Shown: in pieces, positions 22,405 to 32,000 of the stretch
Position numbering within the stretch: position 1 is the first letter of the stretch
How the letters are laid out: every line of letters starts with the position of its first letter
The notes under the pieces: model-generated
What the model was told of the DNA's origin: nothing
The model's input: only the letters and a program-made list of their open reading frames with translations
Databases searched by the model: none
Source of the DNA: Nostoc punctiforme PCC 73102
Lineage (GTDB): Bacteria; Cyanobacteriota; Cyanobacteriia; Cyanobacteriales; Nostocaceae
DNA length: 32,000 bases
Assembly: GCF_000020025.1 (NCBI RefSeq)
Contig: NC_010628.1
Span: 6,960,001-6,992,000, forward strand
Direction of reading: 5' to 3'
Position numbers and translations under genes: made by a program

Positions 22405-22478
22405 GGACGTATAGCTCAGTTGGTTAGAGCGCTACGTTGACATCGTAGAGGTCACTGGTTCGAATCCAGTTACGTCCA
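22405..22478 (+). tRNA. tRNA-Val (anticodon GAC), intact; attachment site of the downstream transposon
   Basis: The cloverleaf was read directly. The acceptor stem is GGACGTA/TACGTCC, the D arm is GCTC-AGTTGGTTA-GAGC, the anticodon arm is CTACG-TTGACAT-CGTAG and the T arm is ACTGG-TTCGAAT-CCAGT. The discriminator is A, no CCA is encoded, and a T-run follows. Confidence 0.93.
22422..22443 (+). other. GGTT PAM (22422-22425) plus 18-nt protospacer (22426-22443) inside tRNA-Val, matched by the short crRNA
   Basis: AGAGCGCTACGTTGACAT at 22426-22443 is the exact reverse complement of 22622-22639. It is directly preceded by GGTT. Confidence 0.85.
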
Positions 22479-22485
22479 TTTTTTT

Positions 22486-22600
22486 TGTACAGTGACTAAT
22501 TATTTGTCGTCGGTGACAGATTAATGTCGTTGGGACTAATTAACTGTCGTCGGGACGAATTGATGTCGTTTAGGTGCCAGTGACAGATTAATGTCATTTA
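22486..22600 (+). mobile_element. Transposon end: terminal TGTACAG plus five ~20-bp TnsB-binding-type direct repeats
   Basis: The terminus is TGTACAG at 22486-22492. The repeats are GTGACTAATTATTTGTCGTCGG (22492-22513), TGACAGATTAATGTCGTTGGG (22514-22534), GACTAATTAACTGTCGTCGG (22534-22553), GACGAATTGATGTCGTTTAGG (22554-22574) and TGACAGATTAATGTCATTTA (22581-22600). From memory this closely resembles the ShCAST donor end that I believe is called LE. Confidence 0.85.
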
Positions 22601-22621
22601 TTTACAGAGACTATAGCGATA

Positions 22622-30300: not shown

Positions 30301-30924
30301 TTCCAGCAAGCTCGTAATGACCTGAAAACTCTAGAACCAGAACTACGCCATATTAGTGAGCCAGATTTGCTCAGGCGGGTGGATTTAGTTAAGCAAATTT
30401 TGGCGATGTCTGACCCCACTGCCAAGATTCCAGAATTAGCAATGTTACTCCTACCTGTCAAAGATAAGGTGCAGGAAGCGCTAACAACTCAAATCTATCA
30501 GGTGGAGAGTAAAAGCAAGGCAATGCGGGAGAAATTAGCTGAGTATGTGACTTCCGCTCACGAAGACATTTCTGCACAGCTTGACCTCAGCAATATCACC
30601 CAAGACATCGATAAAGTTGTCACCTCAGTTAACCAGGTAACAAGTATCGATTCTGCGATCGCACGTCAAAGTGAACTAGAAAGCATCCTCCCACAATTGC
30701 TGCAAAAAGTAGATCAGCAAGCCAATGAAATCATTCAGCGTCAGTCAAACAATGGCAGTAACGGCAAAGTTACTTGTGTCAAACCCATCGTATCGGTGCA
30801 GGTAGCGAGAGTTGCGCCTAAACCCCTACTGGAAACACTCCAAGATGTGGATGTTTATCTAGAGGCGTTGCGGAAAACCCTATTAGATGAGATTCAACAA
30901 AATCATCGCGTTCGTCTTGAGTAA
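27385..30924 (+). CDS. brxC: BREX ATPase BrxC/PglY
   Basis: The protein is 1179 aa with Walker A GFFGSGKSHFLK and a Walker B-like LIFMVDEVGQY. Its size and its position between brxB and pglX fit BREX type 1. Confidence 0.88.
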   Translation: MNIAELFQKDIHRNINGVIKVGQKDDENIRQELEEYVVTNELDKHFRTFFERYTNALNNPTDKMGVWIAGFFGSGKSHFLKILSYLLANHQLENSRALDYFDEKRIPDPMLQALIAQAAHSSCDVILFNIDSKADANNKNHKESITKVFQKVFDEHLGYFGTVLPIAEFERQLDRQGKYAAFQQAFLAESGLEWKENRDAWGFHQDAIASALQTSTGMSAEAANRLLDFGEQNYTLSPEKFAGMVKQYLDSKGPQHRLIFMVDEVGQYIGEDSKLMLNLQTVVEDLGTYCLGKAWVVVTSQEAMDEITKNKIKGEDFSKIIGRFYRPLNLSSANTDEVIKLRLLSKTDAARAGLEALYSQKIAILRNQIAFTQDSADMPGYGNPQDFFTAYPFIPYQFNLLQKVFTQIRLMGSAGKHLASGERSLLDAFQVASQAVAGEPLGVLVPFHTFYMAVEGFLDSSINQVIIQAGRNPQLNSFDIDLLKTLFMVKYLKEIRANLDNLTTLSLSNIDQDKLALRQQVEAALGRLERQTLIQRNGDEYIFLTHEEQDIGREIKNTPVDSGKVKEELRKLIWESIFTDKLFRYSQRHQYKFNRKLDEQLHSQQSDITLHIVTPCAETYTAMKEDTFCIGTTGGGYEVLVRLPYEQRLVDDLETLVKTEKYIKLKSGSNLSPSIQRILRDQSDQNSKRCEDVKTILENLITRADVFACGSKLEIRSRDTKTLLNEGLSYLVGNVYQKLGYVASGFENEDQVSNALTRESQEQDINGQPVNVAAHSEMRAWLMEETRVRRLVSIKALVDKFAVRPYGWSEFDTLGVMAELANKGVIELRHAQGNVNLHDKGLVMQLRSRKEIDKYTVRLTDEINPANLKIAKDMASDLLNGNMSSDPQLLFEQYKNALTKRSQELESWLIQAEGGLPFAELLRTNLNLLAELLTKDSAAKFFDTFRQRRDDIEEFIEDVQKLQSFFSTQIKLFQQARNDLKTLEPELRHISEPDLLRRVDLVKQILAMSDPTAKIPELAMLLLPVKDKVQEALTTQIYQVESKSKAMREKLAEYVTSAHEDISAQLDLSNITQDIDKVVTSVNQVTSIDSAIARQSELESILPQLLQKVDQQANEIIQRQSNNGSNGKVTCVKPIVSVQVARVAPKPLLETLQDVDVYLEALRKTLLDEIQQNHRVRLE

Positions 30925-30988
30925 TATTACTTAGTTTTACCAATCATTTTCGTACCTTTATTGCATCACCCTATTCCCTCATCAGCTT

Positions 30989-32000
30989 ATGAACCGCACC
31001 GCTATCAAAAACTTTGCTATTTGGGCGCGTCGTTACCTACGAGAACAAGTTAAAGCTCGTGCTGCCCAATTTGGTATAACTCACAAAAGTATTACAGAAC
31101 CTCAGACAGTGGCGGGGGGACTATTAGTAGCTGGTCAAACGCTAAATACCACGGAAGCAAACCAGTATCATCAACTGCGAAATCGCTTGCAAGATTTAAC
31201 ACTAAGTTCCAGCCAGTCCCAGGCGGTAGATGCGCTGATAGATGAAATTGCCTACACCTGGTTTAACCGTTTGGCGGCATTGCGGTTTATGGAGGTGAAT
31301 GGATATATCGGGCGGGTGTTGAGTAGTAGCGATCCAAATTTGGTAGACCCTGATTTGTTACGCGATGCTAGTTCTATTGCCGAAATGGGAGATTTACCGG
31401 GTCTTGATTTGGATACTCTCAATGAGTGGCGTAGTTTTGCCAATCGTGATCCCAACCCCGATGAGTTTCTCTACCGCCGTTTGCTGTTAGCTCAGTGTAA
31501 AGCTTTGGCAGAGGGAATTCCAGCACTGTTTGACCCTCGCCAGAACTACCAAGCGCTGTTTTTACCTGGAAATTTGTTAAATCAGGATTCAATTGTACGG
31601 CGGCTGGTAAAAGAGATTCCAGAGGAGGACTGGCAGAATATTGAAGTAGTGGGTTGGCTGTATCAGTTCTACATTTCGGAACGCAAGGATGAGGTGATTG
31701 GGGCAAAGTCGAAGGTTGCAGCCGCAGATATTCCAGCAGCGACTCAATTGTTTACCCCCCACTGGATTGTTCGGTATATGGTGGAGAACAGTTTAGGGCG
31801 GTTATGGTTAGAGGCGCACCCAGAATCACGCTTGCGTGAGTATATGCCTTACTATTTGGAAAATCCTAACGATAATGGTGAGGGTGAAAAACCGCAAGCT
31901 TTAACGCCTCAAGAGTTGACCGTGATAGACCCTGCTTGTGGTAGTGGTCATATTTTGGTGTATGCGTTTGATTTGCTGTTTGAAATTTACAAAGAACAAG
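30989..32000 (+). CDS. pglX: BREX adenine methyltransferase PglX, 5' part (runs off the window)
   Basis: The ATG is at 30989, and the ORF is absent from the track because it has no stop in the window. It translates as MNRTAIKNFAIWARRYLREQV...EIAYTWFNRLAALRFMEVNGYI...QLFTPHWIVRYMVENSLGRLW...IDPACGSGHILVYAFDLLFEIY (SAM-binding motif I). Confidence 0.85.
   Translation, partial: MNRTAIKNFAIWARRYLREQVKARAAQFGITHKSITEPQTVAGGLLVAGQTLNTTEANQYHQLRNRLQDLTLSSSQSQAVDALIDEIAYTWFNRLAALRFMEVNGYIGRVLSSSDPNLVDPDLLRDASSIAEMGDLPGLDLDTLNEWRSFANRDPNPDEFLYRRLLLAQCKALAEGIPALFDPRQNYQALFLPGNLLNQDSIVRRLVKEIPEEDWQNIEVVGWLYQFYISERKDEVIGAKSKVAAADIPAATQLFTPHWIVRYMVENSLGRLWLEAHPESRLREYMPYYLENPNDNGEGEKPQALTPQELTVIDPACGSGHILVYAFDLLFEIYKEQ

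Follow-up and report, generated by a model that had tools for sequence, protein, structure and literature searches.

Evidence for a type V-K CRISPR-associated transposon, ShCAST-like and apparently intact, with BREX cargo at a tRNA-Val gene of Nostoc punctiforme PCC 73102

Immediately downstream of a tRNA-Val gene in Nostoc punctiforme PCC 73102, a 32,000-nt stretch of DNA (hereafter, the window) carries a CRISPR array, a gene encoding a Cas12-like protein and a defence operon. CRISPR-associated transposons (CASTs) of type V-K have been characterised experimentally and structurally since 2019, and the question raised by this locus is whether it forms part of such an element with its transposase genes and second end, the immobilised remnant of one, or a conventional defensive CRISPR-Cas locus. 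Our analysis indicates that the window carries the left ~9.5 kb of a Cas12k (type V-K) transposon. Judging from its sequence, this region is very probably part of an apparently intact element that resembles ShCAST, the prototype V-K system from Scytonema hofmanni UTEX B 2349, and that bears a bacteriophage exclusion (BREX) cargo.

The general organization of V-K elements outlined by Ziemann et al. 2023 (PMC9938897) comprises a tRNA gene directed toward the transposon left end (LE), an anchor spacer of ~17 nt with its truncated repeat (R*), a reverse-oriented array, the trans-activating CRISPR RNA (tracrRNA) and cas12k, followed by a divergent regulator, the cargo and then tniQ-tnsC-tnsB, oriented away from the element's right end (RE). 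The layout of the window agrees with this scheme feature by feature. A preliminary description of the same DNA, drawn from the letters alone, had named seven components (terminus, homing guide, array, tracrRNA, effector, MerR regulator and cargo), and all seven were recovered where it had placed them. The features from the attachment site to the regulator are as follows.

22405-22478, plus strand: tRNA-Val(GAC), the attachment site (ARAGORN; Rfam tRNA, 75.5 bits)
22481-22485, no strand: TTTTT, putative left-hand member of the 5-bp target-site duplication (contig L190, which runs in the opposite orientation, has AAAAA directly against its right-end terminus)
22486-22599, plus strand: transposon LE, composed of TGTACA and five ~20-bp repeats resembling TnsB sites (repeat searches; comparison with the right end)
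22622-22639, minus strand: anchor (homing) spacer, 18 nt, AGAGCGCTACGTTGACAT in CRISPR RNA (crRNA) sense (perfect inverted match to the tRNA)
22640-22653, minus strand: R*, the truncated repeat belonging to the delocalised anchor crRNA, with the crRNA-sense sequence GGGAGGGTTGAAAG (repeat comparison)
22665-22701, minus strand: degenerate terminal (13th) repeat of the array (repeat family D3)
22737-23554, minus strand: CRISPR array of 12 repeats (Rfam CRISPR-DR15, 12 matches, 52.2 bits each)
~23974 down to 23756, minus strand: predicted tracrRNA (likeness to the ShCAST scaffold; positions of the anti-repeats)
24000-25919, minus strand: cas12k, 639 aa, pseudonuclease (ShCas12k, PDB 7N3O, 1209 bits; PADLOC Cas12k_V-K, 1205 bits)
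25920-25999, no strand: divergent cas12k/cvkR promoter region (palindrome AATACACTATGTATT at 25939-25953)
26000-26452, plus strand: cvkR, MerR-type protein predicted to repress the core genes of the CAST (Pfam MerR_1; Alr3614/CvkR, PDB 7XN2, 231 bits)

This element has already been catalogued. The supplementary data of Ziemann et al. 2023 (PMC9938897) list a CAST of Nostoc punctiforme PCC 73102 at 6,982,486-7,010,421 (27,936 bp), in a table row that gives both the start and the end coordinate and assigns Cas12k to WP_012411901.1 and CvkR to WP_012411902.1. The 150 residues of the window CvkR are identical to WP_012411902.1, and the window Cas12k is identical to WP_012411901.1 across the stretch printed in that supplement. 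Furthermore, the length of ~27 kb that we predicted from collinear relatives agrees with the published 27,936 bp. Judged by these identities, the window element and the catalogue entry are the same element; no difference was detected between them, the entry being bioinformatic only. The preliminary description had spoken of a new instance or variant rather than a new principle. The absence of a new principle stands, but the claim to a new instance does not, given the tabulated entry. The PCC 73102 CAST is already known and ordinary, and it adds no new biology. As a correct textbook V-K call made from raw sequence alone, it validates the first sequence-only reading. It also represents a close orthologue of ShCAST, with parts that are apparently intact, in the genetically tractable N. 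punctiforme, where it could serve studies of CvkR regulation and of the mobility of BREX cargo.

Left end, guide RNAs and effector

The tRNA-Val(GAC) gene is the single tRNA placed by ARAGORN and Rfam (22405-22478). A TGTACA terminus (22486-22491) starts seven bases past its 3' end and is followed, up to 22599, by five ~20-bp repeats resembling GTGAC-A-ATTAATGTCGT, for which Tandem Repeats Finder reports a 20/40-bp periodicity. Searching the window with a 20-mer motif from this end (at most 3 mismatches) returned two matches here and none elsewhere, with 0 expected. The first 27 nt of LE are identical at 27 of 27 positions to the right-end termini of two relatives, L186 and L188, and at 26 of 27 to that of L190. 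L186 and L188 are 99.7% identical from TGTACA inward and have unrelated flanks, and TGTACA therefore marks a real mobility boundary.

The anchor spacer is an 18-nt perfect inverted copy of a protospacer within the tRNA gene (22426-22443) that adjoins a GGTT protospacer-adjacent motif (PAM) at 22422-22425. The distance from the last PAM base to TGTACA is 60 bp, which lies inside both published spacing ranges (60-66 bp and 46-82 nt); for V-K anchor crRNAs in general, a spacer of ~17 nt and a GTN PAM located 46-82 nt from LE have been described (PMC9938897). The tRNA match, the PAM and the 60-bp offset bear out the homing guide of the preliminary description, and the same spacer is kept in three sister elements (L015, L017 and L028) at the same tRNA-Val.

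The array itself is composed of 12 repeats of 37 nt, all identical, which alternate with 11 spacers 33-36 nt long; the crRNA is read toward LE. The count of 12 repeats given previously holds, each being matched by the Rfam family, and is extended by the degenerate 13th repeat. The array is separated from the cas12k stop by 445 nt, and the predicted tracrRNA lies inside this interval. At 210 of 219 positions (~96%) the tracrRNA is identical to the ShCAST single-guide RNA scaffold. Its two anti-repeats, CTTTC at 23884-23888 (tracrRNA positions 87-91) and AACCCTCC at 23756-23763 (positions 212-219), both complement the last 14 nt of the repeat. The ShCAST anti-repeats reported in the Cas12k structure paper occupy tracrRNA positions 87-91 and 211-218, the second being shifted in the window by a 1-nt insertion, and this positional agreement provides independent support for the tracrRNA call.

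The pairing of the two repeat types with the tracrRNA is of separate note. R* pairs perfectly with the anti-repeats (-17.4 kcal/mol) and each of the 12 array repeats pairs with one mismatch, located in the second anti-repeat (-13.0 kcal/mol), and because of this difference the homing guide may load preferentially.

The product of cas12k aligns with ShCas12k (PDB 7N3O) over residues 1-639, ungapped, with 1209 bits and about 87% identity. According to the Cas12k structure paper, S452, P546 and P619 replace the acidic RuvC triad, and R78, T287 and R421 read the GGTT PAM; all six residues are found at the same positions in the window protein. The preliminary description had made its call depend on a match of the 639-aa frame to Cas12k models and had pointed to substituted RuvC catalytic residues. 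The PADLOC Cas12k_V-K score of 1205 bits and the residues S452, P546 and P619 agree with both statements. In a scan that covered the window only, no cas1, cas2, cas4 or interference nuclease was detected among the larger open reading frames (ORFs), in line with the absence of adaptation genes and interference nuclease reported before, and the ordinary host genes at 1-22400 likewise include no cas1 or cas2.

These results bear on the possibility that the locus is a conventional defensive type V CRISPR-Cas system that adjoins the tRNA by chance and has no role in transposition. The regular 12-repeat array, the diversity of its spacers and the adjoining defence operon are consistent with such a system. 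We nonetheless exclude it, as an extremely improbable reading, because S, P and P stand in place of the RuvC triad, the anchor guide is self-matching and directed at the neighbouring tRNA, repeats of Tn7 type occur at the end and no adaptation gene (cas1 or cas2) was detected among the window ORFs scanned. Neither homology to a Nuc domain nor an interference nuclease was found, and Cas12k is about 87% identical to ShCas12k, an effector dedicated to transposition.

The locus is thus read as a V-K transposon, and its divergent MerR regulator, also named in the preliminary description, is a CvkR homologue by its Pfam MerR_1 match and its 231-bit score to PDB 7XN2. It comprises 150 aa when read from the ATG at 26000, the longest ORF starting at 25991. 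The published CvkR box is a 15-nt palindrome, AnnACATnATGTnnT, present in the cas12k and tnsB promoters. A similar sequence in the window, AATACACTATGTATT (25939-25953), differs from it by one mismatch and is located between the -35 and -10 elements of a minus-strand promoter-like site, and a second box-like site, also with one mismatch, lies 20 nt upstream of the tnsB ATG in L190 (484-498). Transcripts from the minus-strand promoter-like site would begin very close to the cas12k ATG. A leaderless cas12k mRNA has been described for AnCAST, the CAST of Anabaena sp. PCC 7120, and the predicted cas12k start in the window is in line with it.

Transposase genes, right end and linkage

The preliminary description had proposed that tniQ, tnsC and tnsB, an inverted end and a 5-bp duplication would be found beyond the window. 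Logan contigs L189-L198 were the source of tnsB-tnsC-tniQ, and some of the runs from which they derive also carry window sequences: SRR16479524 contains the exact Cas12k of the window, and SRR8435125 contains its left-flank gene. The TnsC search led to P0155, a protein annotated as Nostoc punctiforme and present on 85 contigs, the longest of 8,234,322 nt, and contigs with tnsB-tnsC-tniQ were found in 107 collection blocks. All three genes are intact, with products (584 aa for TnsB, 276 aa for TnsC and 166 aa for TniQ) that match the ShCAST proteins in PDB over their full length. In the contigs that were read, they occur in a single upstream context, represented by L189 and L190.

The RE is situated ~260 nt upstream of tnsB, and the interval contains no tnsA. 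In L190, TGTACA, AAAAA and TGTACAGTGACTAATTATATGTCGTCG follow one another upstream of tnsB, the inverted terminus being the one identical to LE at 26 of 27 positions, and our reading of this sequence places five motif copies in RE, equal to the count in LE. As expected of a 5-bp duplication, the AAAAA that abuts RE is the reverse complement of TTTTT at 22481-22485, so that the two copies flank the element. The three genes, the inverted end and the duplication were thus all encountered, and we infer that tnsB-tnsC-tniQ belong to the window element. No contig physically joining the window to tnsB was observed, and this linkage therefore rests on the shared samples, on the matching ends and duplication, and on the published coordinates. 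A relative, L188, presents RE, tnsB, tnsC, tniQ, a U49 peptidase, small genes, brxA, brxL and pglZ in this order, and its far half is collinear with L048, L023 and L031.

Several observations weigh against reading the window as the left part of an apparently intact CAST. The Logan contigs stop at a (TAATTCG)n repeat beyond pglX and stop again ~100 nt past tniQ, which leaves the gap in continuity just mentioned. The duplicated TTTTT is of low complexity and constitutes weak evidence on its own. Each of the two CvkR-box matches carries a mismatch, and the motif is no more frequent in the window than expected by chance. None of the array spacers tested had a target in the plasmid and phage collections, in three exact viral-contig scans, in the other loci compared or in the rest of the window. 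Finally, no transposition assay or other functional study of the PCC 73102 CAST was found in the searchable literature.

The break between contigs also bears on the possibility of an immobilised remnant, in which LE and the CRISPR module would survive, the functional transposase or right end would have been lost and the tns contig would come from another Tn7-like element in the genome. Decayed relatives do exist, L031 retaining only Cas12k residues 481-582 and L023 retaining half of cvkR, and many degenerate cas12k loci have been reported (Ziemann et al. 2023, PMC9938897). However, the ORFs and RNAs of the left side are all intact, the 12 repeats are identical, tnsB-tnsC-tniQ are intact and have one upstream context in the contigs read, and RE and the duplication match the left end of the window. 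Moreover, the table in PMC9938897 gives both boundaries of one CAST, whose 27.9 kb agrees with the prediction of ~27 kb. We therefore judge a remnant to be very unlikely and retain the reading of an apparently intact element.

Further searches yielded little on the far side of the element. Exact-protein look-ups with the window Cas12k, BrxC and left-flank gene returned only Logan contigs of at most 11 kb, which break at the CRISPR array, at (TAATTCG)n after pglX or near the tRNA, and no empty site was found among them. A scan of genome contigs with full-length PglX gave no 100% match (best, 92%), a metagenome scan with BrxL gave no CAST-linked locus, and the plasmid collection contained only the BREX operon, on Nostoc plasmids, and a distant Gloeothece CAST. 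With ShTnsB as query, mostly rebuilt from a PDB alignment, many Nostoc homologues were retrieved at 93-98% identity from a collection clustered at 90%. Two TnsB homologues, P0001 and P0006, were tried as a route to the far end of the element and rejected, as their look-ups led to unrelated samples.

Three additional observations concern the tns contigs and their surroundings. Relics of transposon ends occur just outside RE and the duplication, as a 31-nt sequence in L190 (221-251; TGTACATTAACTAATTATTTGTCATTGTACA) and a 52-nt perfect end-to-end palindrome in L103 (1451-1502), and probably represent scars left when elements inserted earlier at this homing site. Contigs L192-L198 (SRR8435xxx, SRR14090607 and SRR30407542), found in more than 100 blocks, are tnsB-tnsC-tniQ contigs of 2-5 kb; in most tns contigs read, the first base lies no more than ~40 nt from the tnsB ATG and the last ~100 nt past tniQ, and an Illumina adapter opens one of them. 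These contigs look like transcript assemblies and, if they are, would imply that the tnsB-tnsC-tniQ operon is expressed. Lastly, an IS110-family transposase gene is located at L189 251-1213, ~480 bp outside RE in the flank of the source organism.

BREX cargo, proposed mechanism and known elements

The defence cargo noted previously was confirmed and refined to a type 1 BREX operon, of which the window contains brxB, brxC and the start of pglX:

26741-27388, plus strand: brxB, BREX type 1 (Pfam BrxB, 147.6 bits; PADLOC BrxB, 220.5 bits)
27385-30924, plus strand: brxC/pglY, P-loop ATPase (PADLOC BrxC, 1416 bits; three Pfam BrxC domains)
30989-32000, plus strand: pglX methyltransferase, first 337 codons, the frame remaining open as it runs off the window end

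A full PglX of 1178 aa is encoded on L007, one of the Logan contigs with proteins identical to those of the window. The genes pglZ, brxL and brxA would lie beyond the window; the relatives L014, L023, L031, L035, L048 and L188 have them in collinear order. In the Nostoc relatives, pglZ and brxL come next in the operon, and brxA is located at its far end, encoded on the other strand; in the window, brxA is missing from the place upstream of brxB where it was expected. An 83-aa ORF at 26445-26696 was treated as spurious, having no family match and not being called as a gene on the Logan contigs.

Beyond pglX, the (TAATTCG)n heptanucleotide repeat is located at L007 11002-11025, just past the pglX stop (~34.5 kb in window coordinates), and ends every Logan contig there. 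The junction between pglX and pglZ holds extra defence genes in relatives: an AIPR (abortive-infection) gene in L028 (13739-15799), and genes for an AAA protein, DarT and an ADP-ribosylglycohydrolase on a plasmid of Nostoc sp. C052 (L013 27824-34572). The pglX-pglZ boundary seems to act as a hotspot where further defence cargo becomes nested.

The mechanism that we propose derives from the ShCAST and AnCAST homologues, the present data being those of sequence anatomy, and we infer both the activity of the element and its regulation by CvkR from this analogy. Cas12k would bind the tracrRNA paired either with an array crRNA or with the delocalised anchor crRNA (R* and the 18-nt spacer), and the resulting complex would form an R-loop at a GTN or GGTT PAM, the anchor guide recognising GGTT-AGAGCGCTACGTTGACAT within tRNA-Val. 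TniQ and a TnsC filament would link the R-loop complex to TnsB, which would insert the element left-end-first ~60 bp downstream of the PAM, immediately beyond the tRNA, generating the 5-bp duplication. In this manner, the anchor guide would home the element to tRNA-Val without disrupting the tRNA gene. CvkR, divergent from cas12k, is predicted to repress the cas12k and tnsB promoters through the 15-nt palindrome, and the type 1 BREX defence operon would be carried along as cargo.

Among known elements, the window transposon resembles ShCAST in its Cas12k (about 87% identical, of the same length and aligned without gaps), in the full-length matches of TnsB, TnsC and TniQ, in the 3' part of the repeat, in the GGTT PAM readers, in the 60-bp insertion offset and in the TGTACA terminus; a CvkR homologue is also present in ShCAST (PMC9938897 supplement). 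It differs in its host and spacers, and its LE has five motif copies, compared to the three binding sites expected for the ShCAST LE. AnCAST, in which CvkR was characterised, shares the order of tRNA, LE, anchor spacer, array, tracrRNA, cas12k, cvkR, cargo, tniQ-tnsC-tnsB and RE, as well as a related regulator (231 bits between the window CvkR and Alr3614) and similar, putative 15-nt boxes in both promoters. In contrast, AnCAST is 24,963 nt long and its cargo is of the restriction-modification and toxin-antitoxin kind (PMC9938897) rather than type 1 BREX, and the putative CvkR boxes of the PCC 73102 element are each one base off the consensus. Cyanobacterial type I-B CASTs, which are Tn7-like and guided by Cascade, are connected to the window element through the relative L048, which has the same cvkR and BREX cargo with Cas6b/Cas8b/Cas7b in the place of cas12k, whereas the window element has a single Cas12k effector with a tracrRNA and no Cascade genes.

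Sister elements, spacer turnover and host flank

The three sister elements, with the same anchor guide at the same tRNA-Val, derive from Nostoc sp. KVJ20 (L015), Nostoc sp. P12646 (L017) and Nostoc sp. WHI (L028). Their Cas12k proteins are 94-96% identical to that of the window and the left end is largely conserved; all three contigs end before the tns genes. The bases between the tRNA and TGTACA (22479-22485 in the window) vary in length and sequence among the four elements, the versions being TTTTTTT, TTTTGT, TTTGTTAT and TTTGT. This variable gap is as expected if each element had inserted independently at a slightly different offset, or if the bases had drifted.

The arrays of these elements differ completely in content. 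No spacer is shared between any two of the four, which contain 11 (window, 22737-23554), 9 (L015, 1916-2600), 8 (L017, 1547-2157) and 5 (L028, 2150-2615) spacers. Because no cas1 or cas2 is visible, the lack of shared spacers suggests spacer acquisition in trans or array replacement.

L048 (592-5278), from a metagenome-assembled genome of Nostoc sp. P12591, was compared with window positions 25875-26925. It carries the same cvkR (98.7% amino acid identity) and the same BREX cargo, and keeps the cvkR/cas12k promoter region and the first ~45 nt of cas12k, after which cas12k is replaced by genes of type I-B Cascade (Cas6b, Cas8b and Cas7b). This arrangement looks like a swap of guide modules between V-K and I-B on a shared cvkR-BREX backbone. 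A more general scenario, which we put forward tentatively and consider rather unlikely, is that these Nostoc CASTs have natural activity, obtain their spacers in trans through the adaptation machinery of the host and exchange whole V-K and I-B guide modules by recombination at the cvkR promoter. If this were true, mobile targets still missing from sequence collections would be where the N. punctiforme element is sent by its 11 non-homing guides. The spacer turnover in relatives, the replacement of cas12k by I-B genes and the end relics outside RE may deserve a separate look.

Two genes of the host flank, unrelated to the element, encode a fusion of a caspase (Peptidase_C14) with GUN4 (window 1234-3195) and a protein of 1809 aa with a Laminin_G_3 domain (9866-15295).

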